Source of the DNA: Enterobacteria phage P922
Reading direction: 5' to 3' (one strand)
Sequence record: OR999189.1
DNA length: 64,000 nt
The translations under genes and the position numbers were made by a program. Every line of letters starts with the position of its first letter. Position 1 is the first letter of the stretch. Positions 2,190 to 61,038 of the stretch are shown one piece after another. The notes beneath the pieces are model-generated. The model was not told the DNA's origin and searched no databases. It worked only from the letters and a program-made list of their open reading frames with translations.

Positions 2190-3128
2190 ATGTACAATAT
2201 TAAATGCCTGACCAAAAACGAACAAGCTGAAATTGTTAAGCTGTATTCAAGTGGTAATTACACCCAACAGGAATTGGCTGATTGGCAAGGTGTATCGGTT
2301 GACACAATCCGTCGTGTTTTGAAAAATGCTGAAGAAGCTAAACGCTCTAAAGTTACTATTAGCGGTGATATTACAGTTAAAGTTAATAGCGATGTAGTTA
2401 TTGCTCCAGTTGCTAAATCTGACATTATTTGGAATGCATCTAAAAAATTCATTTCAATTACTGTTGACGGTGTAACTTATAACGCAACTCCTAATACTCA
2501 TTCAAACTTCCAGGAAATTCTTAATCTGCTTGTAGCGGATAAGTTGGAAGAAGCGGCACAAAAAATTAATGTTCGTCGCGCTGTTGAAAAATATATTTCC
2601 GGCGATGTTCGAATTGAAGGTGGAAGCTTGTTCTATCAAAATATTGAATTGCGATCTGGTTTGGTTGATCGTATTCTTGACTCGATGGAAAAAGGCGAAA
2701 ACTTTGAATTCTATTTTCCATTCTTGGAAAATCTGTTGGAAAACCCAAGCCAAAAAGCGGTATCTCGACTCTTTGATTTCTTGGTAGCAAACGATATTGA
2801 AATTACAGAAGATGGTTACTTCTATGCTTGGAAAGTAGTTCGCAGTAATTACTTTGACTGTCATTCAAATACTTTTGATAACAGTCCTGGTAAAGTAGTT
2901 AAAATGCCACGTACTCGTGTAAATGACGATGATACACAAACTTGTTCTCGTGGTCTGCATGTGTGTTCTAAATCTTATATTCGTCACTTTGGTAGTTCAA
3001 CCAGTCGAGTTGTAAAAGTTAAAGTGCATCCGCGTGATGTAGTATCAATTCCGATTGATTACAACGACGCTAAAATGCGTACCTGCCAATACGAAGTAGT
3101 TGAAGACGTTACTGAACAATTTAAATAA
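2190..3128 (+). CDS. rIIB: rIIB protein
   Basis: 312 aa; N-terminus MYNIKCLTKNEQAEIVKLYSSGNY matches T4 rIIB as recalled; classic AAGGAAAATTATG start context. Confidence 0.9.
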   Translation: MYNIKCLTKNEQAEIVKLYSSGNYTQQELADWQGVSVDTIRRVLKNAEEAKRSKVTISGDITVKVNSDVVIAPVAKSDIIWNASKKFISITVDGVTYNATPNTHSNFQEILNLLVADKLEEAAQKINVRRAVEKYISGDVRIEGGSLFYQNIELRSGLVDRILDSMEKGENFEFYFPFLENLLENPSQKAVSRLFDFLVANDIEITEDGYFYAWKVVRSNYFDCHSNTFDNSPGKVVKMPRTRVNDDDTQTCSRGLHVCSKSYIRHFGSSTSRVVKVKVHPRDVVSIPIDYNDAKMRTCQYEVVEDVTEQFK

Positions 3129-3140
3129 GGGCTTCGGCCC
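3129..3140 (+). promoter_or_regulatory. intercistronic stem-loop GGGC-TTCG-GCCC followed by GAGG Shine-Dalgarno, no U-run
   Basis: perfect 4 bp stem with UUCG tetraloop 1 nt after rIIB stop; same cassette recurs near 41879 and 58896. Confidence 0.5.
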
Positions 3141-3156
3141 TTAACTGAGGAAAATT

Positions 3157-3351
3157 ATGTTAGGTTATCAAGCACGAGTAAAAGAAGAATACGATCAATT
3201 AATGCTCAAAATTAATGCACTGAGCAAATTTTTAGAAAGCGCAAAGTTTCTAACAGTTAATGCAGTTGAGCAAGAACTGTTACTTTCGCAGTTTATCTCA
3301 ATGAAATCTTATGCTGAATGTCTAGAGAAAAGAATTGCACAATTCAAATAA
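3157..3351 (+). CDS. hypothetical small protein (64 aa)
   Basis: ATG preceded by GAGGAAAAT; ORF followed by terminator hairpin. Confidence 0.5.
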   Translation: MLGYQARVKEEYDQLMLKINALSKFLESAKFLTVNAVEQELLLSQFISMKSYAECLEKRIAQFK

Positions 3352-3354
3352 AAT

Positions 3355-3377
3355 AAGGGCTTCGGCCCTTTTGTTTT
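3355..3377 (+). terminator. rho-independent terminator (GGGCTTCGGCCC plus T-run)
   Basis: GC stem with UUCG loop followed by TTTTGTTTT. Confidence 0.6.
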
Positions 3378-3437
3378 AAGAGAAATTATGATTTATTATA
3401 TGAATACCAGTGATTCAGACATAAAAGGAAAGTTTAA

Positions 3438-3995
3438 ATGCAGAAAACGAATCCGGGGTTACAGAGACTATTTCAGATTCCGACATTTACCCTATCGAAC
3501 AGTGACTTGACTAGTGAAATGAAGGTCAAAATTGTTGATACTGCAAGATACTCTTTAAAACAAAACCCAAATCAGGATAAGGCAGAAGTTATCGAAAGAT
3601 GCCGTATCGCTGTGTACGCAGAGTTTTTTGTAGCAGATTGGCTGAGCGGGTATGTTAACAAAGGTCAAGAAGATGTCGATGATCCGTACACATATGCATG
3701 GGATGTATTGGCGCATCCAAGATACTGCGGGCTTCGTGTAGAAGTTAAGACACATCAAACTGACTCACGTTGGATTTCGGTGACAACAGGATGCAGCGGA
3801 GAGTATCCATATGGTTCTGGAATAAATCTAGGGCCCATTCTAAATCATCAAGTCGCTGACTGTATAATTATATTCAACACTAAAGAAATTCATCCAGGTG
3901 TCATCCAATACACTCCGAAGTTCATCGGTGATAGAGAAGACCTTCGTAAGGTTGTAAGAAAAAGCAACTACAGCGGATGGTATCTTTCCATTTAA
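3438..3995 (+). CDS. denB: endonuclease IV (dC-specific ssDNA endonuclease)
   Basis: 185 aa, same length and genomic position as T4 DenB (between rIIB and ndd). Confidence 0.8.
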   Translation: MQKTNPGLQRLFQIPTFTLSNSDLTSEMKVKIVDTARYSLKQNPNQDKAEVIERCRIAVYAEFFVADWLSGYVNKGQEDVDDPYTYAWDVLAHPRYCGLRVEVKTHQTDSRWISVTTGCSGEYPYGSGINLGPILNHQVADCIIIFNTKEIHPGVIQYTPKFIGDREDLRKVVRKSNYSGWYLSI

Positions 3996-4704: not shown

Positions 4705-4902
4705 ATGAAGCGTAAACGCAGTGCTTTTACATTTATTGAATGGTTTTTCGATAATATTTTTCCAGCTTTATTCATTTTCATGTTGATTTTCGCCTTGGGT
4801 TCAGTTGTAGTTGGAATTTATTTGATGGCAGTTGTCGGAATGGACATTCATCAAAATGGCTTAAAATCTGTGGTTGAAACAATTTGGAATGGTGTAAAAT
4901 GA
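4705..4902 (+). CDS. small membrane protein (65 aa)
   Basis: GAGGAAAATATG start; two hydrophobic segments. Confidence 0.4.
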   Translation: MKRKRSAFTFIEWFFDNIFPALFIFMLIFALGSVVVGIYLMAVVGMDIHQNGLKSVVETIWNGVK

Positions 4903-5009
4903 TGAATTTGCTGAGTGGTTGGTTTTATATTCTTATGTTTTACATTGGTGCAAATTTCCCATACTGGATGGGATGGTCAACAACTGCGTTTGGATTTTAT
5001 ACTCCTTGA
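4899..5009 (+). CDS. tiny hydrophobic peptide (36 aa)
   Basis: ATGA overlap with previous ORF; hand-translated. Confidence 0.3.
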   Translation: MMNLLSGWFYILMFYIGANFPYWMGWSTTAFGFYTP

Positions 5010-22905: not shown

Positions 22906-23538
22906 ATGAATATAGTATATTGGTTTACATTTGAAGACCGTGTCAAAAATAAGACTCCGCCGTACTACTATATCGGCAGTAAATTAAATTGCTCATTTGA
23001 GAATGGAATAATATATGACTCTTCCGGAAAGGAATACTGGAGTTCGTGTAAACAAAAAAGATTTTTAAATGCGGTAATGCTTCAAAAACCGAGCGTTAAA
23101 ATAATTCAAATTGATGATGATTTGGATGTTATTGAAGCAGAGCGAAAATACCAACTTGAAGTAAATGCCAGAGATAATCCAGACTATTTTAATCTGGTAT
23201 ATGCCGGTGGCGGATTTGGTGTGAGTGGTGAAACTCATCCAGCCAAAGACCCGGAAGTTAGAGAGCATATGAGATTGGCTAATTATATGAACCGTGACGA
23301 TTTTAGACCTTGGAAAACATCACGAGCTAATATAGAGTCTTGGAAATTATCTCATATTGCTTACGAGAATTATGTGTTATTATTATCCTCTAATCTGTAC
23401 GGTAAAACTCCTGGATGGCGAAGAGTTAAAGGTAATATAAATATAACTGATACAACTGCTAAATCGATGGTAAAGTATTTCAACTCAGGTTGGATACCTC
23501 TCGAAGACCCAGAGTATTGCGAATTATGCCAGCTATGA
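22906..23538 (+). CDS. segG: GIY-YIG homing endonuclease SegG
   Basis: 210 aa; GIY-YIG-like motif (VYWFTF...YYYIGSK); located between 59 and 32 as T4 segG. Confidence 0.75.
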   Translation: MNIVYWFTFEDRVKNKTPPYYYIGSKLNCSFENGIIYDSSGKEYWSSCKQKRFLNAVMLQKPSVKIIQIDDDLDVIEAERKYQLEVNARDNPDYFNLVYAGGGFGVSGETHPAKDPEVREHMRLANYMNRDDFRPWKTSRANIESWKLSHIAYENYVLLLSSNLYGKTPGWRRVKGNINITDTTAKSMVKYFNSGWIPLEDPEYCELCQL

Positions 23539-25957: not shown

Positions 25958-26986
<1,029 letters not shown>

Positions 26987-26987
<1 letters not shown>

Positions 26988-27847
26988 TGAAACAATACCA
27001 ATTTTTAATTAAAGATATCCTGGAAAATGGTTACGAAACCGATGACCGAACAGGCACAGGAACAATTGCTTTGTTTGGTACTAAATTACGCTGGGATTTA
27101 ACTAAAGGTTTTCCTGCGGTAACAACTAAAAAATTAGCATGGAAAGCCTGTATTGCTGAGCTAATATGGTTTTTATCGGGAAGCACAAATGTCAATGATT
27201 TGCGATTAATTCAACATGATTCATTAATTCAAGGCAAAACAGTCTGGGATGAAAATTACGAAAATCAAGCAAAAGATTTAGGATATCATAGTGGTGAACT
27301 TGGTCCAATTTATGGAAAACAATGGCGTGATTTTGGCGGTGTAGACCAAATTATAGAAGTTGTTGATCGTATTAAAAAACTACCAAATGATAGGCGTCAA
27401 ATTGTTTCTGCATGGAATCCAGCTGAACTTAAATATATGGCATTACCGCCTTGTCATATGTTCTATCAGTTTAATGTGCGTAATGGCTATTTGGATTTGC
27501 AGTGGTATCAACGTTCGGTAGATGTTTTCCTCGGTCTTCCATTTAATATTGCATCATATGCTGCATTAGTTCATATTGTAGCTAAGATGTGTAATCTTAT
27601 TCCAGGAGATTTGATATTTTCTGGCGGTAATACTCATATCTATATGAATCACGTAGAACAATGTAAAGAAATTTTGCGTCGTGAACCTAAAGAGCTTTGT
27701 GAACTGGTAATAGGCGGATTGCCTTATAAATTCCGCTATCTTTCTACTAAAGAACAATTGGAATATGTTCTTAAACTCAGGCCTAAAGATTTCGTTCTCA
27801 AAGATTATCAGTCCCATGGTGTCTTGAAAGGAAAAATGGCGGTGTAA
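26987..27847 (+). CDS. td: thymidylate synthase, uninterrupted (no group I intron)
   Basis: 286 aa continuous ORF from ATG (track start is TTG); MKQYQ...; full ThyA fold including the catalytic PPCH motif. Confidence 0.9.
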
Positions 27848-27870
27848 TTAATTATTAATTGTGAGGATAT

Positions 27871-28134
27871 ATGATTTTACGATTTAAAGATACTTCTGGT
27901 GTAGTTCTTTTTACACTTCCTAACCCAAGCGAGTTAGAAGTTCCAGGACCAAATCAGCCTATTGTCATTTATGGCAAAAAATATTATACTCATAAAATGA
28001 CTCGTGAGTATTTTGATAATAAAATTTCCACAGTTAAAACTTCTTCAGATTGTTACTATGATATTACTGTTTTAACGGAAAAACAATATGACGAATTATC
28101 ACCGCGCGGGCCGTCTATGCCAGGTAGTGAATAA
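27871..28134 (+). CDS. hypothetical protein (87 aa)
   Basis: ORF between td and nrdA. Confidence 0.5.
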
Positions 28135-28414
28135 ATATAAATCCGACTTTGATGTTAATATTCACCGTGGTACATTTTGGGGAAATTACGTCGGTAAAGA
28201 TGCTGGCAGCCGGGAGGCTGCCATTGAATTATTCAAAAAAGATTTTATACGTCGAATTAAATCCGGAGAAATAACTAAAGCACATTTAGAGCCTTTACGT
28301 GGAATGAGGCTAGGATGCACATGTAAACCAAAGCCGTGTCATGGTGATATAATAGCTCATATAGTTAACCGATTGTTTAAAGACGATTTTCAAGTTGAGG
28401 ACTTATGCAATTAA
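28088..28414 (+). CDS. hypothetical protein (108 aa; start uncertain)
   Basis: ORF between td and nrdA overlapping the nrdA start. Confidence 0.45.
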
Positions 28415-30669
28415 TTAATGTTATCAAAAGTAGTGGTGTTTCTCAAAGCTTTGACCCGCAAAAAATTATTAAAGTTTTATCTTGGGCAGCTGAAGGAACA
28501 TCTGTAGATCCTTATGAATTATATGAAAATATTAAATCATATCTCCGTGATGGAATGACCACTGATGACATTCAAACCATTGTAATTAAGGCTGCTGCGA
28601 ATTCTATTTCAGTTGAAGAGCCTGATTATCAATATGTAGCTGCACGCTGTTTAATGTTTGCTCTTCGTAAGCATGTTTACGGACAGTATGAGCCCCGTTC
28701 ATTTATTGACCATATTTCTTACTGTGTAAATGAAGGTAAATACGACCCTGAATTGTTGTCAAAATATTCAGCAGAAGAAATTACATTTTTAGAATCAAAA
28801 ATTAAGCATGAGCGGGATATGGAATTTACTTATTCCGGGGCGATGCAATTAAAAGAAAAATATCTCGTTAAAGATAAAACCACTGGTCAAATTTATGAAA
28901 CTCCCCAGTTTGCATTTATGACTATTGGAATGGCATTACATCAAGATGAACCTGTTGATAGATTAAAACATGTTATTCGTTTTTATGAAGCAGTATCTAC
29001 TCGACAGATTTCACTGCCTACTCCTATTATGGCTGGATGTCGTACTCCGACTCGGCAATTTAGTTCATGCGTTGTTATTGAGGCAGGCGATTCGCTGAAG
29101 TCTATCAATAAGGCTTCTGCTTCAATTGTTGAGTATATTTCAAAACGAGCTGGAATCGGTATTAACGTTGGTATGATTCGTGCCGAAGGTTCTAAGATTG
29201 GCACAGGTGAAGTACGCCATACTGGTGTTATTCCTTTTTGGAAACATTTTCAGACTGCTGTTAAATCATGTTCACAGGGCGGAATTCGTGGCGGCGCTGC
29301 TACTGCTTATTATCCTATTTGGCATTTGGAAGTTGAAAATCTTCTCGTTTTGAAAAATAACAAAGGTGTAGAAGAAAACCGTATCCGTCATATGGATTAT
29401 GGCGTCCAGTTGAATGATTTGATGATGGAACGTTTTGGAAAGAACGATTACATTACTTTGTTCAGTCCGCATGAAATGGGTGGTGAGCTTTATTATTCTT
29501 ATTTTAAAGACCAAGACCGTTTCTGCGAATTATACGAAGCAGCAGAAAAAGACCCTAATATTCGCAAAAAGCGTATTAAAGCCCGTGAACTATTTGAATT
29601 ACTCATGACTGAACGATCAGGAACAGCAAGGATTTATGTGCAGTTCATTGATAATACGAATAACTATACTCCGTTTATTCGTGAAAAGGCGCCTATTCGC
29701 CAGAGTAACTTGTGTTGTGAAATTGCTATTCCAACAAATGATGTGAATAGTCCTGATGCTGAAATTGGATTGTGCACGTTATCTGCATTTGTGTTGGATA
29801 ACTTCGATTGGCAAGACCAAGATAAAATTAATGAATTAGCAGAAGTTCAAGTACGTGCACTTGATAACCTGTTAGACTATCAAGATTATCCGGTTCCAGA
29901 AGCTTTAAAAGCTAAAAAGCGTCGTAATCTCGGTGTTGGTGTTACGAACTATGCAGCTTGGCTGGCAAGTAACTTTGCTTCTTATGAAGATGCTAACGAT
30001 TTAACACATGAACTATTTGAGAGATTACAGTATGGGCTCATTAAAGCATCCATTAAGCTCGCCAAAGAAAAAGGACCTTGCGAATATTATTCAGACACTC
30101 GTTGGTCTCGAGGCGAATTACCTATCGACTGGTACAATAAAAAGATTGACCAAATCGCAGCTCCAAAATACGTTTGTGACTGGTCGTCGCTGCGGGAAGA
30201 CCTTAAGCTCTTTGGCATCCGTAATAGCACATTATCAGCACTTATGCCATGTGAGTCATCTTCCCAAGTTTCTAACAGTACAAACGGTATCGAGCCTCCA
30301 CGTGGACCAGTCTCTGTTAAAGAATCAAAAGAGGGTTCCTTTAATCAAGTCGTGCCCAATATTGAGCATAACATAGACCTCTATGATTATACGTGGAAAT
30401 TAGCTAAGAAAGGCAATAAACCTTATCTTACGCAGGTAGCTATTATGCTGAAATGGGTATGTCAATCAGCTTCAGCGAATACATATTATGACCCGCAGAT
30501 TTTTCCAAAAGGAAAGGTTCCAATGTCTGTAATGATTGATGACATGCTATACGGATGGTATTATGGCATTAAAAACTTCTATTATCATAATACTCGTGAT
30601 GGTTCCGGTACTGATGATTACGAAATAGAAACTCCAAAAGCCGATGATTGCGCAGCGTGTAAATTGTAA
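28405..30669 (+). CDS. nrdA: aerobic ribonucleotide reductase large subunit
   Basis: 754 aa, same length as T4 NrdA; class Ia RNR motifs. Confidence 0.95.
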   Translation: MQLINVIKSSGVSQSFDPQKIIKVLSWAAEGTSVDPYELYENIKSYLRDGMTTDDIQTIVIKAAANSISVEEPDYQYVAARCLMFALRKHVYGQYEPRSFIDHISYCVNEGKYDPELLSKYSAEEITFLESKIKHERDMEFTYSGAMQLKEKYLVKDKTTGQIYETPQFAFMTIGMALHQDEPVDRLKHVIRFYEAVSTRQISLPTPIMAGCRTPTRQFSSCVVIEAGDSLKSINKASASIVEYISKRAGIGINVGMIRAEGSKIGTGEVRHTGVIPFWKHFQTAVKSCSQGGIRGGAATAYYPIWHLEVENLLVLKNNKGVEENRIRHMDYGVQLNDLMMERFGKNDYITLFSPHEMGGELYYSYFKDQDRFCELYEAAEKDPNIRKKRIKARELFELLMTERSGTARIYVQFIDNTNNYTPFIREKAPIRQSNLCCEIAIPTNDVNSPDAEIGLCTLSAFVLDNFDWQDQDKINELAEVQVRALDNLLDYQDYPVPEALKAKKRRNLGVGVTNYAAWLASNFASYEDANDLTHELFERLQYGLIKASIKLAKEKGPCEYYSDTRWSRGELPIDWYNKKIDQIAAPKYVCDWSSLREDLKLFGIRNSTLSALMPCESSSQVSNSTNGIEPPRGPVSVKESKEGSFNQVVPNIEHNIDLYDYTWKLAKKGNKPYLTQVAIMLKWVCQSASANTYYDPQIFPKGKVPMSVMIDDMLYGWYYGIKNFYYHNTRDGSGTDDYEIETPKADDCAACKL

Positions 30670-31400
30670 TGAATTATCAAAAAATCTATAATGACCTAAT
30701 TTCCCGAGCTCAGGCTCGGGAATCTTTATCAGAATATAAAGAGACACATCATATAATCCCTAGATGTATGGGAGGTTCTGATGATAAGGAAAATTTAGTT
30801 GAATTAACAGCCAGAGAACATTTTATAGCTCATTTACTACTATGTAAGATAAATGAAGGCCATTTTGGGCTTGCCTCTGCGTTAACGTTAATGGCAACAG
30901 ATAAAGCTGGCAATAGAATTAATAACAGATTGTACAGCTTACACAGAAAATTATTTGCTAAAGCTAATTCTGAGTTCTTTAAGAAATATTGGAAAAATAA
31001 TCCTCATCCTAAAGGAATGTTAGGCAAGCACCATAAAAGCGAAACTAAACAGCATGTATCAAACGTGAATAGATATGCATGCCCATCTATAGAAATACAT
31101 AAATTCTCATTAGATGGGGATTTCATAGAAACCTTTCACTCTATTGCGGCAGCGTCCCGGTCAGTTAATGGAAACGGGTCAAATATCAAATATTGTGCCG
31201 AGGGTAAATTTCAATATGCTTATGGATTTAGATGGTCATATCAACTTGATGCAAAGTTTGACAAAATAAAACCAAGAGATTATAAAGGAATCCGCGGTAA
31301 GAAATGGATTAATAATGGAAGTGAATGCACGCTTATAGGTAAAGATGATATTATACCGCCAGGTTGGAAACACGGCAGAATTTTAAAGAGGAAAAATTAA
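30669..31400 (+). CDS. mobE: HNH homing endonuclease (MobE-like) between nrdA and nrdB
   Basis: 243 aa; HNH motif HHIIPRCMGGSDDKENLVELTAREHFIAH; position between nrdA and nrdB where T4 carries mobE. Confidence 0.7.
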   Translation: MNYQKIYNDLISRAQARESLSEYKETHHIIPRCMGGSDDKENLVELTAREHFIAHLLLCKINEGHFGLASALTLMATDKAGNRINNRLYSLHRKLFAKANSEFFKKYWKNNPHPKGMLGKHHKSETKQHVSNVNRYACPSIEIHKFSLDGDFIETFHSIAAASRSVNGNGSNIKYCAEGKFQYAYGFRWSYQLDAKFDKIKPRDYKGIRGKKWINNGSECTLIGKDDIIPPGWKHGRILKRKN

Positions 31401-32578
31401 TGTCTACAGTTTTTAATACAAACCCAGTTGATGTTTTAAAAGAACCTATGTTCTTCGGTTCAGGTCTTGGTATTGCGCGTTATGATATTCAACGTCATAA
31501 AGTTTTTGAAGATTTAACCGAAAAGCAGTTGTCATTTTTCTGGCGTCCTGAAGAAGTAAACTTAATGATGGATGCTGCACAATTTAACAAGCTTCCTCAG
31601 TATCAGCAAGATATTTTTACTAACAACCTGAAGTATCAATCACTTCTAGATAGCATTCAGGGTCGTGCACCGTCTGCAGTACTTATGTCATTAATTTCAG
31701 ACCCAAGTCTTGATACATGGGTTGCTACATGGACTTTTAGTGAAACTATTCATAGCCGTTCATATACCCATATCATGCGAAATCTTTATACTGATCCATC
31801 GAAGGTATTTGATGAGATTGTACTAGATGAAGCTATCATGAAACGTGCTGAATCTATCGGTCGCTATTATGATGATGTTCTGACTAAAACCCGTGAATGG
31901 GAAAATGCTAAAGAATTTACAGAACTAGCTAAAGAATCTCCTGATGCTGTTTTTCGTTTAAATCGAGCTATTAAACAAGAAGCCGAAGCTAAACGAGCAC
32001 TAATGAAATCTCTTTACCTCTGTTTGCACGTTATTAATGCCTTAGAAGCTATTCGTTTTTATGTATCTTTTGCATGTACCTTTAACTTCCATAAGAACAT
32101 GGAAATCATGGAAGGTAATGCCAAGATTATGAAGTTCATTGCACGTGATGAGCAGCTTCACCTTAAAGGCACCCAATATATTATTCGTCAACTTCAATCC
32201 GGTACTGATGGCGGCGAATGGGTTAAAATTGCTCAAGAGTGTGAACAAGAAGCAGTTGATATTTTCATGGAAGTTAACCGCCAAGAAAAAGATTGGGCAG
32301 TTCATTTATTTAAAGATGGCGATGTTCCTGGATTAAATACAAATAGCATGTGGAGCTTTATTGATTACTTAACTGTATCTCGTATGAAACAGTGCGGTCT
32401 TCCATGCCCAATTACCGATGCTCCGGTTAAACATCCATATCCTTGGATTCGTGAATACCTTAATTCTGATAATGTTCAATCCGCGCCACAAGAAGTAGAA
32501 CTGTCATCTTACCTTGTTGCACAGATTGATAATGATGTTGATGATAAAGTTATGATGAGTTTTAAAAAATACTTTTAA
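31400..32578 (+). CDS. nrdB: aerobic ribonucleotide reductase small subunit, uninterrupted
   Basis: 392 aa continuous from ATG (track start is TTG); di-iron/tyrosyl radical family. Confidence 0.9.
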   Translation: MSTVFNTNPVDVLKEPMFFGSGLGIARYDIQRHKVFEDLTEKQLSFFWRPEEVNLMMDAAQFNKLPQYQQDIFTNNLKYQSLLDSIQGRAPSAVLMSLISDPSLDTWVATWTFSETIHSRSYTHIMRNLYTDPSKVFDEIVLDEAIMKRAESIGRYYDDVLTKTREWENAKEFTELAKESPDAVFRLNRAIKQEAEAKRALMKSLYLCLHVINALEAIRFYVSFACTFNFHKNMEIMEGNAKIMKFIARDEQLHLKGTQYIIRQLQSGTDGGEWVKIAQECEQEAVDIFMEVNRQEKDWAVHLFKDGDVPGLNTNSMWSFIDYLTVSRMKQCGLPCPITDAPVKHPYPWIREYLNSDNVQSAPQEVELSSYLVAQIDNDVDDKVMMSFKKYF

Positions 32579-32583
32579 GGAGT

Positions 32584-32597
32584 GGGCCGCAAGGCCC
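32584..32597 (+). promoter_or_regulatory. stem-loop GGGCC-GCAA-GGCCC between the AAGGAG SD and the denA start codon
   Basis: hairpin sits between SD (AAGGAG) and the first ATG of the denA reading frame. Confidence 0.45.
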
Positions 32598-32605
32598 ATT
32601 TTATT

Positions 32606-34191
<1,586 letters not shown>

Positions 34192-35623: not shown

Positions 35624-35627
<4 letters not shown>
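35397..35627 (+). CDS. hypothetical protein (76 aa)
   Basis: ATGA-coupled ORF. Confidence 0.45.
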
Positions 35628-36845
<1,218 letters not shown>

Positions 36846-37576: not shown

Positions 37577-38104
37577 ATGAGCGAATGGTTTGAAGAAGAT
37601 AAGGTTTATCGCTTTAAAGCTGGATATAAAGATATTTTTAATGAAACTTGTGGGGCTAATAAACGAATTGCCCAGTTTATTGGGGAAAATTCATTTAAAG
37701 TAAAAATAGATCCTGCGAAAAATGTTATTAGTATTAAACGCGAAATTGACGATTGCTGGTATAAAGCTGTTGATGTAATGGGCGAATCTTATAAAGATAG
37801 CCCGCTATTTTCAATTACTTATATGTCAGAATATTATTTTTTCGAAGAAGTTCAAAAAGATGACTCTATCAGTAAATTTGAAATTAAAACTGATAAAGAA
37901 ATTAAGTGGAAAGTAGTAGGTATTACTGGTTGTATGTTTTATATCTATGCTCAAACTGATACGAAGGAAGAAGCTAAAAAGAAAGCTCTAGAATATCTTG
38001 AAGAGTATGAAGAAGGCCCGGTAATGATTACCCAAGATGCCGAATTAGTTTCTGTCAAATTAGTTAAAAACGTTGAAAGTAAGGAGCTAGGATCAACATG
38101 CTAA
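37577..38104 (+). CDS. hypothetical protein (175 aa)
   Basis: GAGGAAATTGAAATG start. Confidence 0.5.
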   Translation: MSEWFEEDKVYRFKAGYKDIFNETCGANKRIAQFIGENSFKVKIDPAKNVISIKREIDDCWYKAVDVMGESYKDSPLFSITYMSEYYFFEEVQKDDSISKFEIKTDKEIKWKVVGITGCMFYIYAQTDTKEEAKKKALEYLEEYEEGPVMITQDAELVSVKLVKNVESKELGSTC

Positions 38105-45812: not shown

Positions 45813-45848
45813 AATTTTATAAATAGAATAAACACTAGAGAGGATATG

Positions 45849-47942
45849 ATGGAACTCATTACAGAATTATTTGACGAAGATACTACTCTTCCGATTACAA
45901 ACTTAAATCCAAAGAAGAAAATACCGCAAATTTTTTCAGTTCATGTTGATGACGCAATTGAACAACCAGGCTTTCGTTTATGTACCTATACATCTGGAGG
46001 TGATACTAATCGCGATTTAAAAATGGGCGATAAAATGATGCATATTGTTCCTTTTACATTAACTGCTAAAGGTTCAATTGCTAAATTAAAAGGTCTCGGT
46101 CCAAGCCCAATTAATTATATCAATTCAGTTTTTACTGTTGCAATGCAGACGATGCGTCAGTATAAAATTGATGCCTGTATGCTCCGTATTCTTAAGTCTA
46201 AAACTGCTGGTCAAGCTCGACAAATTCAAGTTATTGCTGATAGACTTATCCGTAGTCGTTCAGGTGGCAGATACGTCCTTCTTAAGGAACTCTGGGATTA
46301 CGATAAAAAGTATGCATATATTCTTATACATCGCAAAAATGTATCACTAGAAGACATTCCAGGAGTTCCGGAAATTAGTACCGAGCTCTTTACTAAAGTT
46401 GAATCGAAAGTCGGCGATGTTTATATCAATAAAGATACTGGTGCTCAAGTAACTAAAAATGAGGCAATTGCAGCATCTATTGCGCAAGAAAATGATAAAC
46501 GCTCTGACCAAGCTGTAATCGTTAAAGTTAAAATTTCCCGTAGAGCAATTGCGCAAAGTCAATCATTAGAATCTTCTAGATTTGAAAGCGAATTATTCCA
46601 GAAGTATGAATCTACTGCAGCTAATTTCAATAAACCTGCTACTGCTCCTTTAATTCCAGAAGCAGAAGAAATGAAGCTTGGAATTAATTCATTAGCTTCT
46701 AAAACTAAGGCAGCAAAAATTATTGCTGAAGGAACTGCAGATGAACTTCACTATGACTATAAATTCTTTTCAAAAAGTGAGGTTAATGAAGTTTCTGAAA
46801 AAATTAAAGATGTAATTCTTAATGCGATTAAAAATGAACCAACTACTTCAATAAAATGTTTAGAGAAATACGCAGCAGCTGTTAATAAATTCTTTGAAGA
46901 ATACAAAGATAAATGGCTTGATAAACATAATAAAACCCGTAAAGGACAGCCAGATGAAGTCTGGGAAGAAATAACTAAAAATTCCTGGAACGCAGCAAAA
47001 ACTAAATTCCTCAAACGAATGATTTATAGTTTTTCTGGAATTGGTGCAGGTCCAATGATTGATATTACCATTGCACGCGATGGTTCTAAATATACTCCAT
47101 CGCAAAAGCGCGGCATTAGAGAGTATTGTGGATCAGGATATACTGACATCAATAATCTTCTTTTAGGCCGCTACAATCCAGAACGATATGATGTAATGAG
47201 TGAAAAAGAAATTGAATCTGCTATAAATAACTTAGATTCAGCTTTTGAAAATGGTGACCGTATACCAGAAGGCATTACAGTTTATCGTGCTCAAAGTATG
47301 ACTGCTCCTATATACGAAGCACTAGTTAAAAATAAAGTGTTCTATTTCAGAAATTTTGTATCTACTTCTTTAACTCCTATCATTTTTGGACGTTTTGGAA
47401 TTACACATGCTGGTATTGGTCTTTTAGAACCAGAAGCTCGTAATGAATTGACAGTTGATAAAAATGAAGAAGGAATAACTATTAATCCAAACGAAATAAG
47501 AGCGTATAAAGAAAATCCTGAATACGTTAAAGTTCAAATAGGATGGGCAATTGATGGAGCTCATAAAGTTAATGTTGTATATCCAGGAAGTCTCGGAATA
47601 GCAACAGAAGCTGAAGTTATTCTACCGCGCGGATTGATGGTCAAAGTTAATAAAATAACTGATGCTTCTAATAATGACGGAACAACATCTAATAATACAA
47701 AACTCATTCAAGCTGAAGTTATGACTACAGAAGAACTCACCGAATCAGTAATTTATGATGGAGACCATTTAATGGAAACTGGTGAAGTAGTTGCAATGAC
47801 AGGTGATATTGAAATAGAAGACAGAGTTGACTTTGCATCATTTGTTTCATCAAACGTTAAACAGAAAGTAGAATCATCTCTTGGAATTATTGCGTCTTGC
47901 ATAGATATTACAAACATGCCTTACAAGTTCGTTCAAGGATAA
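45849..47942 (+). CDS. alt: Alt ADP-ribosyltransferase (packaged, modifies host RNA polymerase)
   Basis: 697 aa from second ATG; MELITELFDEDTTLPITNL... matches T4 Alt; C-terminal R / STS / EAE ART signature. Confidence 0.85.
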   Translation: MELITELFDEDTTLPITNLNPKKKIPQIFSVHVDDAIEQPGFRLCTYTSGGDTNRDLKMGDKMMHIVPFTLTAKGSIAKLKGLGPSPINYINSVFTVAMQTMRQYKIDACMLRILKSKTAGQARQIQVIADRLIRSRSGGRYVLLKELWDYDKKYAYILIHRKNVSLEDIPGVPEISTELFTKVESKVGDVYINKDTGAQVTKNEAIAASIAQENDKRSDQAVIVKVKISRRAIAQSQSLESSRFESELFQKYESTAANFNKPATAPLIPEAEEMKLGINSLASKTKAAKIIAEGTADELHYDYKFFSKSEVNEVSEKIKDVILNAIKNEPTTSIKCLEKYAAAVNKFFEEYKDKWLDKHNKTRKGQPDEVWEEITKNSWNAAKTKFLKRMIYSFSGIGAGPMIDITIARDGSKYTPSQKRGIREYCGSGYTDINNLLLGRYNPERYDVMSEKEIESAINNLDSAFENGDRIPEGITVYRAQSMTAPIYEALVKNKVFYFRNFVSTSLTPIIFGRFGITHAGIGLLEPEARNELTVDKNEEGITINPNEIRAYKENPEYVKVQIGWAIDGAHKVNVVYPGSLGIATEAEVILPRGLMVKVNKITDASNNDGTTSNNTKLIQAEVMTTEELTESVIYDGDHLMETGEVVAMTGDIEIEDRVDFASFVSSNVKQKVESSLGIIASCIDITNMPYKFVQG

Positions 47943-47945
47943 ATC

Positions 47946-50003
47946 ATGGAACTTATTACAGAATTATTTGACGGCGCTTCGGCGCCGGTTGTTAACTTAA
48001 ACCCGAAGCATAAAATACCTCAAATTTTTGCTATTCAAGCAGGTGAAGAAAGCGTGCTTCCTGGATTTAGATTTTGTACATACACCTCTGGCGGTGATAC
48101 AAATAAAAACGTTAAGCCAGGCGATAAAATGATGCATATCGTAATGATAGGTGTCAATGAAAAGCTATCATTAGTTAAACTTAAAAACTTAGGTGGAAAT
48201 CCAATTGGTGTCATTAATGCGGTTTTTGATACTGCTCTTCAAACAATGAAACAGTATAAAATTGATGCATGCTTATTCCGCGTACTAAAGAGCAAAACAA
48301 ATGGAGCTGCTCGTCAAATGCAAGTTATTGCCGACCGTTTAGTACGTACTAAAGGAGCAGGTCGATATGTTCTTTTAAAGGAAATCTGGGACTATGATAA
48401 GAAATATGCATATATTATGGTTTACCGCAAAAATGCCAATTTAGAAGACATTCCAGGTGTACCTCCTATTTCAACTGAGTTATTCACAAAGGTTGAATCA
48501 AAGGTTGGTGATGTTTATGTAGATGTTAAAACAGGTAATGCTGTTCCTAAAGCTGTTGCTGTTGCTGCTTCTATTGCTTTAGAAAATGATAAGCGCACAG
48601 ATCAAGCTGTAATTCAGAAAACTAAAATTAGTCGTCGATTAGCAGCACAAGCTCAATACTCTACTGTCGATGCTTCACTTCAGGGTGATAGCTTCGCCGC
48701 TAAGAAATATCAAGAGTTTGAATCTAAAGTTCCGGTATATAAAGCAGAAGGACCAATGAACTCCGGCGTTATTCAGGTTGGTTCAAACTTCAGCAAAGGA
48801 GCTATCGGTGGTATGAGGAGTGCTTCTCGTTTTAAATCTAGTGATTATGAACTAGAAAGCTTCCGAAATCATATTGCATTGGCCCATGCGCGTTTACGTG
48901 ATCCATCTATTAAATTACAGAGCGATATAACATATCAAGGTTCTCAAGAATATTTAAAGAATAAAGAATTTTTTGATTATAAAACTGATAAAATTTTAAG
49001 CGATCTTGCTGACATTAATATTTCTAATAGCTTTGATGTTATTAAGAAAATTGTCAATGATTTAGTTAAAGGTTCTAAAGCCACGCCAGACGAAAAGGTA
49101 GCTATTGTTCAATTTGTCATGAATGGCATTTATAAATTGATTAATGAGTCTGCTTCTCAAGCGTATGAATATGCAAGTACTGAAGTACCCCCAAAAGGAT
49201 TAACTCAGGCTGAGTCTGATGTAATTGAAGATTATTGCGCGGATTCATATGTTGAAATGAACTCGTTCCTTTTAGGTAAACCGGATTCTACTCGTGAAGA
49301 ATACATGGAACGAGCTATTAAACACATCGAGACAATGGATTCTGCCTTTGCCAAAGGATCAGTTCTTCCTCCAGGAACTACGCTTTATCGTGGACAAGAA
49401 GTTACCTTTAAAACTTTACGTCATAATATTGAAAATAAAATGTTCTATTTTAAGAACTTCGTATCCACATCGCTTAAACCAAATATCTTCGGTGAGTATG
49501 GTAAAAACTATATGGCTCTAGATGATTCCAGTACAGTATTTTCTGGTGAAGGAGAAGGTTCAGTTGACGCAGAAGATTTGATGCATATGGGCAGTCATTC
49601 TTCTTATGCGAATGAAGATGCTGAAACTAGCGTGGGTATGGTAATTAAAGGAGCTGAGCGAATCAAAGTTATCGTTCCGGGTCATTTATCAGGATTTCCA
49701 TCAGAAGCTGAAGTTATTTTACCACGTGGAATTTTGCTGAAGATTAATAAAGTGAGTACGTACATGATGAAAGAAACTGCTTATAACAAGTATTTAATCG
49801 AAGGCACAATCGTTCCTCCTTCTGAACAATTAGAAGAATCGGTATATGATGGCGATCATCTGATGGAAACTGGTGAAGTTCGTCCAATGGCTGGGTTTAA
49901 TCAATTCCTTGTAGAAGAATCAAAAGAAGAGGAAAACGAAGTTTCTCAAATCTTAGCTTCTTTGGTTAACATCAACGGAATGTCTAAAAAGTTCAAGATG
50001 TAG
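47946..50003 (+). CDS. Alt-like ADP-ribosyltransferase paralogue
   Basis: 685 aa; N-terminus MELITELFDGASAPVVNLNPKHKIPQIF parallels Alt; conserved FVSTSL and SEAEVILPRG motifs; middle region divergent. Confidence 0.75.
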   Translation: MELITELFDGASAPVVNLNPKHKIPQIFAIQAGEESVLPGFRFCTYTSGGDTNKNVKPGDKMMHIVMIGVNEKLSLVKLKNLGGNPIGVINAVFDTALQTMKQYKIDACLFRVLKSKTNGAARQMQVIADRLVRTKGAGRYVLLKEIWDYDKKYAYIMVYRKNANLEDIPGVPPISTELFTKVESKVGDVYVDVKTGNAVPKAVAVAASIALENDKRTDQAVIQKTKISRRLAAQAQYSTVDASLQGDSFAAKKYQEFESKVPVYKAEGPMNSGVIQVGSNFSKGAIGGMRSASRFKSSDYELESFRNHIALAHARLRDPSIKLQSDITYQGSQEYLKNKEFFDYKTDKILSDLADINISNSFDVIKKIVNDLVKGSKATPDEKVAIVQFVMNGIYKLINESASQAYEYASTEVPPKGLTQAESDVIEDYCADSYVEMNSFLLGKPDSTREEYMERAIKHIETMDSAFAKGSVLPPGTTLYRGQEVTFKTLRHNIENKMFYFKNFVSTSLKPNIFGEYGKNYMALDDSSTVFSGEGEGSVDAEDLMHMGSHSSYANEDAETSVGMVIKGAERIKVIVPGHLSGFPSEAEVILPRGILLKINKVSTYMMKETAYNKYLIEGTIVPPSEQLEESVYDGDHLMETGEVRPMAGFNQFLVEESKEEENEVSQILASLVNINGMSKKFKM

Positions 50004-58896: not shown

Positions 58897-58911
58897 AGGG
58901 CCGAAGCCCTT
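58896..58911 (-). promoter_or_regulatory. intercistronic stem-loop (GGGCUUCGGCCC) between uvsW and downstream ORF
   Basis: overlaps uvsW stop; followed on minus strand by GGAG SD. Confidence 0.45.
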
Positions 58912-60418
58912 ATAAATTAACTGTTTTCATTACGTAATTAAATTTTTCATCTGCGTAGCGCTGAATACGATCAATGCCGTGTTTTAAAAGATAGTTCAAA
59001 TGAACATATTTCTTTTTCGTATTAGCAGATTTTGGCTTAACACCGCAATCATCAATGAGGTCCCAGACCGTTGCGATTGTTTTAGAACCATGCTTACGTA
59101 ATACACGACCTATTGTTTGCAATACAATAATTTTAGATTTAACGCCGTGCGCTAAAACAACGTGATGCAGATTTTTAACTGAAATACCAGTAGAAAATAC
59201 ACCATAACTAGCTACTATAATTATTCCTTTACCGTTTTCAGCTAAGGTTTTCATTACATTGCGTGTTTCAGTATCAACTTCCCCTGATACGTAATAAACT
59301 TTATCGTATTCATTTTTAATTAAATCGAAAATAGCTTTACCATGTGATACATGTTTAAACATGACAAAAGCGTTTTCATCTTTTTGCGCAAGTTTAATAG
59401 CTAATTTAGCGATCCATTTATTTCTTTTACTGAGCCCAGTAATAATTTTTATTTCTTCTTGGTAAGTTTTTCCCTTTAATTTAGTAGTGAACTCATCGGG
59501 ATAACGAAGAAAAATACTATTAATTTTTAACTCAGTTACTTGTCCATCTTCCATTAATTTAGAAGTCGTTACTGGCTTAAATATTTCACCAAACATTCCA
59601 ACATACTGCATGATATTGGCTTTGCCATCACGTAATGAACCAGACAAACCGAATTTGAACATGCAGTTATTTAAACCTGATATGATAGATGAAATACTTT
59701 TTCCTGTAGCAAGATGGCATTCATCATTCATCATCATTCCAAACTGTGAGAACCATTCTTTTGGTTGTTTTACTACAGTTTGCCATGTACCAACAATTAC
59801 CGGTGCATCATTTTTATATTTATCATCTTTTGATGCTCCGCCGCCAATTTTCTTTATCATTGCATGACTGAATAAACGATAATCAACAAAGTCATCAGCC
59901 ATCTGAGTTGTCAGAGCAGTTGTTGGAACAATGATAAGAATTTTACCTTCATAATTTTCCAAATAATAACGTGCAAGCAAAGCTTGAATTAAAGATTTAC
60001 CTGCGGATGTTGGAAGATTAAGAATTCTACGACGATTAACTAATCCTTCGAACACTGCATCTTTTTGATACCAGTGTGGTTCAATTCTTTTATTTCCTGA
60101 ATAGATTTCTAATTTAGAAAGCCATTCATCAAAATCTTTTCTTGATAATTCTTCTTTTTCGTTAATCTGTGGGTCAATCCAAGCTTTATAGCCAAAGTTA
60201 TCACAGAACTTTTTAATTTGCCCGACTAAGCCGAATGGAAGAAGGCGATTATAATCTAAAAGACGGATTCGTCCATCCCAGTTGCCATATCTGAAGCGAG
60301 GATTAAACCTATATCCATCGGCCTCAAACGAAAAGAAATCTCTTAATTCGTGGAACGTGCTCTCTTCACAATCGATGCGTACATGACTGAAGTCGTGAAA
60401 ATGTACTTTAATATCCAT
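58910..60418 (-). CDS. uvsW: UvsW DNA/RNA helicase
   Basis: 502 aa; SF2 helicase motifs (PTSAGKS, DECH). Confidence 0.9.
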   Translation of the reverse strand: MDIKVHFHDFSHVRIDCEESTFHELRDFFSFEADGYRFNPRFRYGNWDGRIRLLDYNRLLPFGLVGQIKKFCDNFGYKAWIDPQINEKEELSRKDFDEWLSKLEIYSGNKRIEPHWYQKDAVFEGLVNRRRILNLPTSAGKSLIQALLARYYLENYEGKILIIVPTTALTTQMADDFVDYRLFSHAMIKKIGGGASKDDKYKNDAPVIVGTWQTVVKQPKEWFSQFGMMMNDECHLATGKSISSIISGLNNCMFKFGLSGSLRDGKANIMQYVGMFGEIFKPVTTSKLMEDGQVTELKINSIFLRYPDEFTTKLKGKTYQEEIKIITGLSKRNKWIAKLAIKLAQKDENAFVMFKHVSHGKAIFDLIKNEYDKVYYVSGEVDTETRNVMKTLAENGKGIIIVASYGVFSTGISVKNLHHVVLAHGVKSKIIVLQTIGRVLRKHGSKTIATVWDLIDDCGVKPKSANTKKKYVHLNYLLKHGIDRIQRYADEKFNYVMKTVNL

Positions 60419-60420
60419 AA

Positions 60421-61038
60421 TTATGCCTTACTAAATTTGCCTTTAGAATCTCTTTTCATGAGACGACCTTTAATAAATCCGTCGGGAATAATACCGTCTG
60501 GTTGTATTAATTTATTTATTGCGCCATTATTGACCCAAAAAGTTCCTGTTGTAGTCGGTTTGACTTTACATCCTTTTCTGGACTTTCTATTAGGATGAAC
60601 CATCCCTTTTACAAATCCTTCTGGAACAAGTTCTCCAGGCTTAATAAAAATATTTTTAGTTCCATTAGTGTAACAAGTTGTACCTAATACCGTGCCCGGT
60701 GAGTTTTCAAATCTCTTAGCGGAAGATTCTTTCATCTTTGCTATAACCTCTGTAGTCATAACAATTCCACCAATTCCACCAGGTTTCATATTATAATAAT
60801 TTTTGCTTTTTATTAGTTCAGGAGTTATAATTTCTTCTTCATACATGTACGCTTCTTCGGAAGTTTTAAACTCTTTTAGTATTTTTCTAGAGAAATTGTT
60901 TTCACCATATTTCTTTATAGCCTGCTGAATTGCCTTACCGGAACCAATGTAGCCATCATTCAGGTCGTCAGTAGAGTGCTTTCCTATATACTTTTTACCA
61001 TTTATTAGATTTGTTGTTTCATATACAAAGTGGTACAT
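60421..61038 (-). CDS. segF: GIY-YIG homing endonuclease (SegF-like)
   Basis: 205 aa; GIY-YIG motif HFVYETTNLINGKKYIGKHS; position between uvsW and inh as T4 segF. Confidence 0.7.
   Translation of the reverse strand: MYHFVYETTNLINGKKYIGKHSTDDLNDGYIGSGKAIQQAIKKYGENNFSRKILKEFKTSEEAYMYEEEIITPELIKSKNYYNMKPGGIGGIVMTTEVIAKMKESSAKRFENSPGTVLGTTCYTNGTKNIFIKPGELVPEGFVKGMVHPNRKSRKGCKVKPTTTGTFWVNNGAINKLIQPDGIIPDGFIKGRLMKRDSKGKFSKA

Follow-up and report, generated by a model that had tools for sequence, protein, structure and literature searches.

Introduction

Patchy introns and free-standing homing endonucleases are textbook features of the T-even phages. The question raised by the nrdA-nrdB neighborhood of Enterobacteria phage P922 is what to make of a genome in which td and nrdB are each a single uninterrupted gene while endonuclease genes stand close by. 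In the initial annotation these endonucleases were described as "retained", and the genome was proposed to be a recipient rather than a donor in intron homing. The window, meaning the whole stretch of DNA that was analyzed, comprises 64,000 nucleotides of sequence record OR999189.1. The explanation that very probably covers the whole arrangement is a combination of T2-like, intron-less td and nrdB genes with an RB3-type allele of mobE, segG and segE genes that should be functional, and empty homing sites that appear to be usable. The arrangement itself is well understood and very little in it is new; the nrdA-mobE-nrdB configuration is already in GenBank many times, in dozens of relatives.

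Gene Order and the Free-Standing Endonuclease Genes

Judged by its alignment to T4, the window is part of a Tequatrovirus (T4-like phage) genome that is collinear with T4, extending in T4 terms from rIIA (T4 ~2189) backwards to T4 ~109128. The region of interest is the frd-td-nrdA-nrdB-denA nucleotide-metabolism cluster, ordinary for a T4-like phage. Three genes of the window, namely mobE, segG and segE, encode free-standing homing endonucleases (Table 1). The small ORF between frd and td has no Pfam family, and no T4 match was found for 26785-26985. Further endonuclease genes were sought in the window segments that have no T4 counterpart (37577-38104, 46656-49983 and others) and none were found there; these segments contain a second alt paralogue and small ORFs of unassigned function.

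The GIY-YIG genes had been assigned to the segG and segF positions. The first assignment holds, while the second gene is segE; there is no segF in the window, its 56/soc locus (T4 15.6-16.3 kb) lying outside the span covered. The GIY-YIG ORF directly after nrdB was considered as a seg or homing gene and rejected, as it is denA, encoding a host-DNA degradation enzyme. With the "segF" gene renamed and denA kept apart from the seg genes, two points of annotation are corrected, and no GIY-YIG ORFs beyond segG, segE and denA were found in the window. The products of segG and segE, being nearly identical to their T4 copies, should function as they do in T4.

Table 1. Genes, homing sites and signals of the P922 window discussed in the text.
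Feature	Position	Strand	Basis and remarks
segG, free-standing GIY-YIG homing endonuclease gene, 210 aa	22906..23538	+	between genes 59 and 32 as in T4; 209/210 residues as T4 SegG; phrog_7504 "homing endonuclease", E 2e-133
ORF of unassigned function, 68 aa	26781..26987	+	between frd and td, absent from T4; phrog_9550, E 1e-45
td, thymidylate synthase, uninterrupted, 286 aa	26987..27847	+	full-length match to Pfam Thymidylat_synt, E 2e-93; collinear with the T4 exons when joined
Empty I-TevI homing site	27509..27547	+	aligned to the T4 intron-less junction; CAACG at 27509-27513, insertion point 27535/27536
nrdA, ribonucleotide reductase large subunit	28405..30669	+	Pfam ATP-cone, Ribonuc_red_lgN, Ribonuc_red_lgC; 745/754 residues as T4 NrdA
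mobE, RB3-type allele, free-standing HNH homing endonuclease gene, 243 aa	30669..31400	+	phrog_655, E 5e-58; fills the nrdA-nrdB gap
Terminator-like hairpin in the mobE 5' end	30701..30722	+	terminator scan; TTCCCGAGC-TCAG-GCTCGGGAA, then TCTTTAT; same sequence and position in T4
HNH catalytic motif, mobE codons 24-55 (H27, H28, N42, H51, H55)	30738..30833	+	THHIIPRCMGGSDDKENLVELTAREHFIAH; residues invariant in 37 homologues
nrdB, ribonucleotide reductase small subunit, uninterrupted, 392 aa	31400..32578	+	Pfam Ribonuc_red_sm; collinear with the joined T4/RB3 exons
nrdB segment corresponding to the T4 MobE target	31513..31555	+	polymorphic block nt 114-131; nick nt 122-126 (31521-31525); FFWRPEE-coding block nt 136-156
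Empty I-TevIII homing site	32036..32115	+	insertion point 32075/32076; cuts expected 14 and 16 bp upstream
denA, endonuclease II, GIY-YIG nuclease	32582..33016	+	135/136 residues as T4 DenA; Pfam GIY-YIG; phrog_1111
segE, free-standing GIY-YIG homing endonuclease gene, 205 aa	60421..61038	-	between inh and uvsW as in T4; 201/205 residues as T4 SegE

An RB3-Type mobE Allele

The HNH ORF between nrdA and nrdB is where it had been reported, and by sequence it is mobE, in the form of the RB3-type allele and not the T4 allele. In its HNH head (residues 1-55) a single residue departs from T4 MobE (54/55 identical), and high DNA identity to T4 stops at 30833, the position of codon 55. At the protein level the similarity to T4 MobE fades after about residue 105, and the tail that follows is different. 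It is this tail, for which there is no orthology to that of T4, that marks the allele as a distinct one of the RB3 type. The proposed kinship with T4 MobE was therefore right as to homology, although the allele is another one. The T4 gene nrdB.1 was considered as a match to the tail of the 243-aa protein and rejected, there being no similarity between them. From the sequence, nrdB.1 is best read as the frameshifted, real C-terminus of T4's own MobE, and the split of the T4 reference into mobE and nrdB.1 is probably a sequencing artefact.

The Pfam HNH model scores 20.8 bits on the protein, slightly below its cut-off of 21.4, and NUMOD1 scores 25.9 bits (cut-off 22.8) at residues 147-177. The C-terminal region also has a NUMOD3-like GKHHKSETKQHVS motif, and the predicted structure is made up of separate small modules. 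A sequence search of the PDB with MobE returned marginal HNH hits only.

The mobE start codon overlaps the nrdA stop in the sequence TAATGA (30666-30671), identical in T4, and the nrdB start codon overlaps the mobE stop (TAATG). The promoterless T4 mobE, with its UAAUGA overlap and 5' hairpin, has been described (PMC2988022, PMC2790892), and in T4 the equivalent hairpin stops about 30% of transcripts (PMC2790892). If the RB3-type gene behaves like T4 mobE, its protein would be produced in small amounts from transcripts that read through from nrdA, by way of the overlapping stop and start codons and past a weak internal terminator. Near its 3' end, some 45 nt ahead of nrdB, mobE contains a MotA-box-like motif followed by TATTAT (31330-31354); a MotA-type middle promoter for nrdB is not claimed here because the motif match is weak.

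In a mixed infection, a relative that has no mobE would be nicked or cut by MobE in its nrdA-nrdB region, and recombinational repair off the mobE-bearing genome would copy mobE and its flanks into that relative. The published MobE experiments found in the literature were done with the T4 allele in all cases, and for the RB3-type protein we infer its enzymatic activity, its target and the outcome of crosses. A near-identical block of about 6.7 kb, centered on mobE, is common to the window and an otherwise diverged phage; from the sequence this fits a recent conversion, but ordinary recombination gives the same pattern.

The nrdB Target and the Question of Self-Immunity

Nucleotides 91-170 of nrdB are 100% identical to those of T2, which means that the sequence nicked by T4 MobE in T2 is present here unchanged; T4 MobE nicks the T2 substrate in vivo (PMC2790892). 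The phage thus carries a mobE gene next to a T2-type, nickable nrdB that has none of the protective changes, a poor fit with the model drawn from T4 in which the host genome is immune through target polymorphisms. A search of IMG/VR for related nrdB loci gave 27 loci, mostly from other genera and too diverged for a linkage test. Among them, nrdB nt 114-135 is polymorphic in lineages that have no mobE as well, and this makes it harder to regard the T4 substitutions as solely a matter of "immunity". Since the tail of the RB3-type MobE is not that of T4, the enzyme may have a target other than the mapped nrdB site.

A further idea can be put forward tentatively, although we would rate it as somewhat unlikely. 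At least three mobE alleles (the RB3 type of 243 aa, the T4 type of 232 aa and a 213-aa type), sharing one catalytic HNH head (residues 1-55) but differing in their DNA-binding tails, may compete for the nrdA-nrdB slot of the T-even phages. As the mapped T4 MobE nick site is unprotected in the nrdB of P922, a T4-type phage in a mixed infection might nick this genome, replace the RB3-type mobE with its own allele and, if the donor carries the nrdB intron as T4 does, drag that in as well. If true, this would be the replacement of one homing endonuclease allele by another and not the invasion of an empty site, and the RB3-type enzyme would have to recognize a different site or tolerate self-nicking.

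Self-nicking is also a rival reading in its own right. It would have the RB3-type MobE share the nrdB target of T4 MobE and nick its own genome, with the damage tolerated by virtue of the many genome copies available for repair. There are precedents of a kind, as Sandegren and colleagues are said to have found in 2005 that SegH and Hef cut their own DNA. The head of the protein is nearly that of T4, and recognition of the nick region was assigned to the HNH head by Wilson and Edgell (PMC2790892); moreover, in four of the seven RB3-type carriers examined, nrdB nt 91-170 do not differ from T2. The DNA-binding tail, the part expected to anchor the enzyme, is nevertheless unrelated to that of T4 beyond about residue 105, so that an identical target is not expected, and on the whole a shared target seems rather unlikely.

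It has also to be asked whether the RB3-type mobE is mobile at all, since it could be an inactive relic, or a gene kept for nrdB expression signals or as a DNA-binding regulator. An unprotected T2-type nrdB would be harmless if the enzyme were inactive, and the MotA-box-like motif and TATTAT lie within the gene itself. In T4, loss of mobE is proposed to be selected against on account of the nrdB middle promoter that lies inside it (PMC2790892), and a regulatory role for MobE was left open by Wilson and Edgell. Against this stands the strength and spread of the conservation. The dN/dS ratio is about 0.10, in head and tail alike, indicating purifying selection across the whole protein including the HNH head, whereas a promoter carrier or relic would not be expected to conserve catalytic residues. 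H27, H28, N42 and H51 are invariant throughout the 37 homologues, which range down to 33% identity, and no frameshifts were seen in the seven full-length alleles compared, which come from two phage genera. The near-identical block around mobE in a diverged phage points the same way, with the reservation already made about recombination. Loss of mobility is consequently considered quite improbable, and the reading of mobE as a gene for a probably active, mobile endonuclease is kept.

Intron-Less td and nrdB as Potential Recipients

That td and nrdB are continuous ORFs, and that the T4 group I introns with I-TevI and I-TevIII are absent, was claimed from the outset and is borne out on both counts. 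At 861 nt, td has the length of the intron-less T2 gene, and at 1179 nt so does nrdB. The alignment of td to T4 breaks at 27535/27536, where about 1016 nt of T4 are skipped, exactly the T4 td intron, and that of nrdB breaks at 32073/32076, where the 598 nt skipped are exactly the T4 nrdB intron. In alignments to T4, T2 and RB3 there are no extra bases at 27535/27536 or 32075/32076. A scan with the Rfam gathering threshold had no hits in the window but was discarded as evidence because it misses the genuine T4 and RB3 introns as well. RF00028 at a permissive threshold detects both T4 introns as a positive control (E 9e-8 and 2e-6) and no group I intron in the window at 26700-33100. The view that either gene still harbors an overlooked group I intron, intact or degenerate, could appeal to the uninformative gathering-threshold scan. 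Yet both ORFs have exactly the T2 length and align to the joined T4 exons with no added sequence, and the permissive search is negative; this view has practically no chance of being correct and is already refuted by the alignments. The state is a common one, with about 60% of comparable phage records lacking the td intron and about 75% the nrdB intron, and patchy intron presence among T-even phages has been recognized since 1987-89 (PMC2988022).

Aligning the insertion sites with T4, as was suggested at the start, suggests that the recognition sequences are in usable condition. The cuts made by I-TevI fall 23 and 25 nt upstream of the insertion site, with a preference for CXXXG (PMC2988022), and here its CAACG cleavage motif stands at -27 to -23 of the td insertion site, with correct spacing. 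The 39-bp I-TevI site is identical to the T4 intron-less site at 33 positions and different at 6; T2 has an equal count, mostly at the same positions. In crosses, T2 acquires the td intron with high frequency (PMC2790892, Table 2). The 40 nt on either side of the nrdB insertion site contain one difference from the joined exons of T4 and RB3 (nt 675, A for G), which T2 also has; the I-TevIII cut positions are taken from PMC1865063. Since both sites appear usable and are similar to those in T2, for which uptake of the td intron has been demonstrated, to call this genome a potential intron recipient seems reasonable.

The word "retained" finds no support as a statement about descent from a T4-like, intron-bearing state, for the td exon flanks carry T2-like polymorphisms and not the co-converted T4-like flanks of the intron-bearing RB3. 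In this lineage td and nrdB simply have no introns, just as in T2. The features needed by I-TevI and I-TevIII are preserved at the two empty sites, so that co-infection with a T4- or RB3-like phage could make the genome intron-plus. The proposal of a recipient rather than a donor was thus sound in its first half, for two introns; the contrast itself is a false one, as the phage is likely to be a donor of mobE, segG and segE too.

With its mobE slot occupied, its nrdB target of the T2 type and its td and nrdB intron sites empty, this phage is a natural test substrate, one that bears on the displacement of one mobE allele by another and on the model that target polymorphism gives self-immunity for MobE.

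Comparison with Known Systems

One system for comparison is I-HmuI of Bacillus phage SPO1 (PDB 1U3E), an HNH nicking homing endonuclease and the best PDB match of the predicted MobE model (1u3e, E 4.8e-3, probability 0.94), a match that is weak globally (TM 0.21-0.28, 13% identity). In each protein an HNH core leads into a long series of small DNA-binding modules; I-HmuI is intron-encoded. In the model, the resemblance appears to be at the level of architecture and not that of one close family.

T4 MobE (Wilson and Edgell 2009, PMC2790892) is found at the same locus, with the same UAAUGA overlap and internal hairpin. Its tail has NUMOD3 repeats and a C-terminal zinc-finger-like CPHC...H...C motif, whereas that of the window has one NUMOD3-like motif, the NUMOD1 domain and a WINNG...PPGWKHGR end. 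The 5' end of T4 nrdB has many substitutions around the nick site that are missing from the nrdB of the window, and T4, unlike the window, has the nrdB intron downstream of mobE.

The RB3-type allele is present in 54 phage records. Phages SF2-1, G28 and PYps55T have it together with an nrdB of the T2 type. In RB3 itself (AY262130 / KM606994) the gene is annotated as mobE and occupies the same nrdA-nrdB slot with the same 732 nt and the same overlaps, its protein being 96.7% identical; unlike the window, RB3 has introns in both td (with I-TevI) and nrdB (with an intact I-TevIII). Closer still is Shigella phage SF2-1 (PQ571308), in which the nrdA-mobE-nrdB stretch is 100% identical, with mobE of 732 nt in the same slot and with the same overlaps. 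SF2-1 is intron-less too, but has a different frd-td ORF and a td that is more T2-like than that of the window.

T2 (NC_054931) shares with the window the intron-less td and nrdB, the identical nrdB nt 91-170 and similar I-TevI site variants. It differs in having no mobE (a 51-nt spacer separates nrdA and nrdB), no segG and a different nrdA 3' end. T2 is a proven recipient for both I-TevI and MobE; the nrdB intron of T4, whose I-TevIII is defunct, also enters T2 by way of MobE.

Endonuclease Genes in the P922 Window

BLAST searches against phage genomes and T4 place the window in Tequatrovirus; it is collinear with T4 but read in the opposite direction, from rIIA at window 1 (T4 coordinate ~2189) to window 64000 (T4 ~109128), with the gene order rIIA, 52, 37, 34, 32, frd, td, nrdA, nrdB, denA, rnlA, pseT, cd, 30, alt, uvsW, hoc and rnlB. 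Single segments are common to known phages. The isolate itself is new, because the best database phage identity over 25 kb is at most ~95.5%.

Five T4 homing endonuclease genes come from the same genome stretch (segE, I-TevIII, mobE, I-TevI and segG), and the window has the three free-standing ones, segE, mobE and segG, without the intron-borne I-TevI and I-TevIII. The HNH gene between nrdA and nrdB and the GIY-YIG gene at the segG position, both reported in the initial annotation, were found; the gene it had assigned to the segF position is segE, the segF locus (T4 15.6 kb) being outside the window. The GIY-YIG ORF that follows nrdB was rejected as a homing endonuclease, as it is denA. Window segments without a T4 counterpart were searched for more endonuclease genes, and none was found. 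Elsewhere in the window, two ORFs without T4 counterparts are present in the cd-pseT region, and two full-length ADP-ribosyltransferase paralogues stand in tandem where T4 has a single alt with the short remnants alt.-1 and alt.-2. UvsW is shorter than the 587 aa of the T4 reference annotation, and the T4 record itself marks sequence discrepancies in uvsW.

Positions of genes and sequence elements in the P922 window
Feature	Window position	Strand	Description
segG	22906-23538		209/210 identical to T4 SegG
frd-td ORF	26781-26987		68 aa; phrog_9550 (function unknown)
td	26987-27847		one ORF, 286 aa; Pfam match full-length
CAACG	27509-27513		-27 to -23 of td insertion site
mobE	30669-31400		HNH ORF, 243 aa; occupies nrdA-nrdB gap
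weak terminator hairpin	30701-30722		within mobE
middle-promoter-like motif	31330-31354		cGCTTATA-12 nt-TATTAT; mobE 3' end
nrdB	31400-32578		one ORF, 392 aa; Pfam match full-length
denA	32582-33016		endonuclease II, directly after nrdB; 135/136 identical to T4
106-aa ORF	35624-35944		no T4 counterpart
175-aa ORF	37577-38104		no T4 counterpart
alt paralogues	45846-50003		698 and 685 aa
uvsW	58910-60418	minus	502 aa
segE	60421-61038	minus	201/205 identical to T4 SegE

Intron-Free td and nrdB and Their Homing Sites

The td and nrdB introns are absent, and both genes are continuous, as first described, with exactly the lengths of the intron-less T2 genes. The alignment to T4 breaks from window 27535/T4 144564 to window 27536/T4 143546 in td and from window 32073/T4 139058 to window 32076/T4 138457 in nrdB, and the sole T4 sequence missing at those breaks is the td intron (~1016 nt) and the nrdB intron (598 nt). 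An Rfam scan at the gathering threshold was uninformative, being empty in the window and missing the true T4 and RB3 introns too. At a permissive threshold RF00028 detected both T4 introns as a positive control (E 9e-8 and 2e-6), and gave no group I intron match in window 26700-33100.

Phages differ in what lies at the frd-td spot, which makes it a small variable slot ahead of td. T4 has no spacer at the place of the window's 68-aa ORF, RB3 (phrog_1928) and SF2-1 each have an unrelated 115-aa ORF, and T2 has ~410 unannotated bases.

The two I-TevI cuts fall 23 and 25 nt before the insertion site, and the enzyme favours CXXXG and accepts many substitutions (PMC2988022); in the window CAACG is in place. 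The 39-bp site has six differences from the T4 intron-less site, as does that of T2, and five of the window's six are at positions varying in T2. In crosses with T2, I-TevI was inherited at ~2x the input ratio (PMC2790892, Table 2). Within 40 nt on either side of the nrdB insertion site, one base (nrdB nt 675) is unlike the T4 and RB3 exons, a difference common to T2. With these features conserved both sites look usable, and the phage may fairly be inferred to be a potential recipient of both introns. Its td exon flanks carry T2-like polymorphisms, whereas those of the intron-bearing RB3 are T4-like, so there is no indication that this td allele ever held the intron.

An RB3-Type mobE Allele

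At both ends mobE overlaps its neighbours, its ATG with the nrdA stop (TAATGA) and its stop with the nrdB ATG. The proposed likeness to T4 MobE holds for the head of the protein, where 54 of residues 1-55 are identical, and fails for the tail; DNA identity to T4 (~95%) spans nrdA to window 30833, the exact end of codon 55, and then ceases, and protein similarity is weak as far as ~residue 105, with none beyond. The 243-aa protein is 100% identical to that of Shigella phage SF2-1 and 96.7% identical to that of RB3, where it is annotated mobE, and this allele is in 54 phage records (diagnostic query covered at least 80%).

The product has a NUMOD1 domain (Pfam, over cut-off) and a NUMOD3-like motif, and at its C-terminus is WINNG...PPGWKHGR, a type of motif with which SegE also ends. 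H27, H28, N42, H51 and H55 are invariant among 37 homologues (lowest identity 33%). The protein is under purifying selection, as dN/dS (Nei-Gojobori) is ~0.10 for head and tail alike, both within Tequatrovirus and against a Gaprivervirus homologue, the synonymous sites of the inter-genus comparison being saturated (dS ~2). An AlphaFold model from the 37-sequence alignment (mean pLDDT 88.9) has as its top PDB match I-HmuI, an HNH nicking homing endonuclease (E 4.8e-3, probability 0.94); the low global TM-score (0.21-0.28) would be expected for modules joined by flexible linkers.

The weak terminator hairpin inside T4 mobE (PMC2790892) is unchanged in the window. T4 also has an nrdB middle promoter inside mobE. 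In the window a motif resembling a T4 middle promoter, conserved across Tequatrovirus RB3-type alleles, precedes the nrdB start by ~45 nt and may be the counterpart of that promoter.

mobE Alleles in Other Phages

At least three mobE alleles occupy the nrdA-nrdB slot in the sampled phages, with the HNH head common to all. Besides the RB3 type there is a T4 type with NUMOD3 repeats and a zinc-finger-like end, its ECO4 version being 232 aa long. A 213-aa type (e.g., vB_ECOLIGBLB0003) has an end matching that of the T4 type, and 213 aa is also the length of the HY03 and Ge15 homologues, which carry NUMOD3. T2 has a 51-nt nrdA-nrdB spacer instead of mobE. The T4-type diagnostic query was covered in only 21 records, mostly T4 itself.

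In the T4 reference (NC_000866 139716-140416) mobE is annotated as 141 aa with a separate 83-aa nrdB.1, while ECO4 (locus 735-1433) and a re-sequenced T4 strain (T4 'wild', KJ477684) have one 232-aa ORF across this stretch; two additional single bases, 87 nt apart, distinguish the reference from them. An old sequencing error probably accounts for the split, nrdB.1 being the zinc-finger-like MobE C-terminus. The one CDS that KJ477684 annotates in this stretch lies where nrdB.1 does (note 'Nrd.1'), leaving the full ORF unannotated.

Shigella phage CT01 is a natural mobE-loss derivative, in which a 629-nt deletion between 8-nt direct repeats (CT01 locus 4770-4921; window equivalent 30805-31433) takes most of mobE and nrdB codons 1-11 and leaves an in-frame MobE(1-45)::NrdB fusion. 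Its nrdA, 99.9% identical to that of the window, is annotated in two parts (CT01 locus 2922-3878) around an insert with a 318-aa opposite-strand ORF, which may be another mobile element.

Predicted Nicking, Possible Exchange and Comparison with Known Phages

T4 MobE nicks T2 nrdB at nt 122-126, codon 42 (AAG), and Wilson and Edgell proposed that substitutions at nt 114-131 shield mobE-bearing genomes (PMC2790892). Over nrdB nt 91-170 the window is 100% identical to T2, and T4-type MobE is therefore predicted to nick its genome; SF2-1, G28 and PYps55T, with the same mobE allele, are also 100% identical to T2 there, and RB3 and JoYop have 3-5 silent changes. The divergent nrdB block is in T4 and ECO4, both with the T4-type allele. 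Over nt 1-200, T4 nrdB has only 80-90% identity to ~480 of 559 records, and that of the window has 93-97% identity to mobE-less phages picked from all along the ranking. T4-like substitutions in the block also occur in some mobE-less phages of other genera and are thus not purely an immunity signature. The window's own MobE would either have another target site, its tail being different, or nick its own genome, with the nicks being tolerated. It is possible, though less likely than not, that mobE alleles compete for the nrdA-nrdB slot and replace one another there.

Against SF2-1 the window has zero mismatches over ~28000-32750 and fewer than 10 as far as ~34700. Divergence is 5-10% on either side of this block, in td and past pseT.3, and mobE with the nrdB 5' end lies near its middle. 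The pattern would fit endonuclease-driven co-conversion and is a possible sign of recent exchange, but ordinary recombination among mosaic phages would look the same.

The observation in the initial annotation was real, the segF label apart, and its interpretation reasonable though not new. Among ~487 phage records covering at least 80% of the 8.3-kb region, the td intron is nearly full-length in 197 and the nrdB intron is present in 129 (85 of them with the long RB3 form), so intron-free at both sites is the majority state. The region is a well-understood, often-sequenced configuration, and the review literature had noted T4 as the exception in its endonuclease load (PMC2988022).
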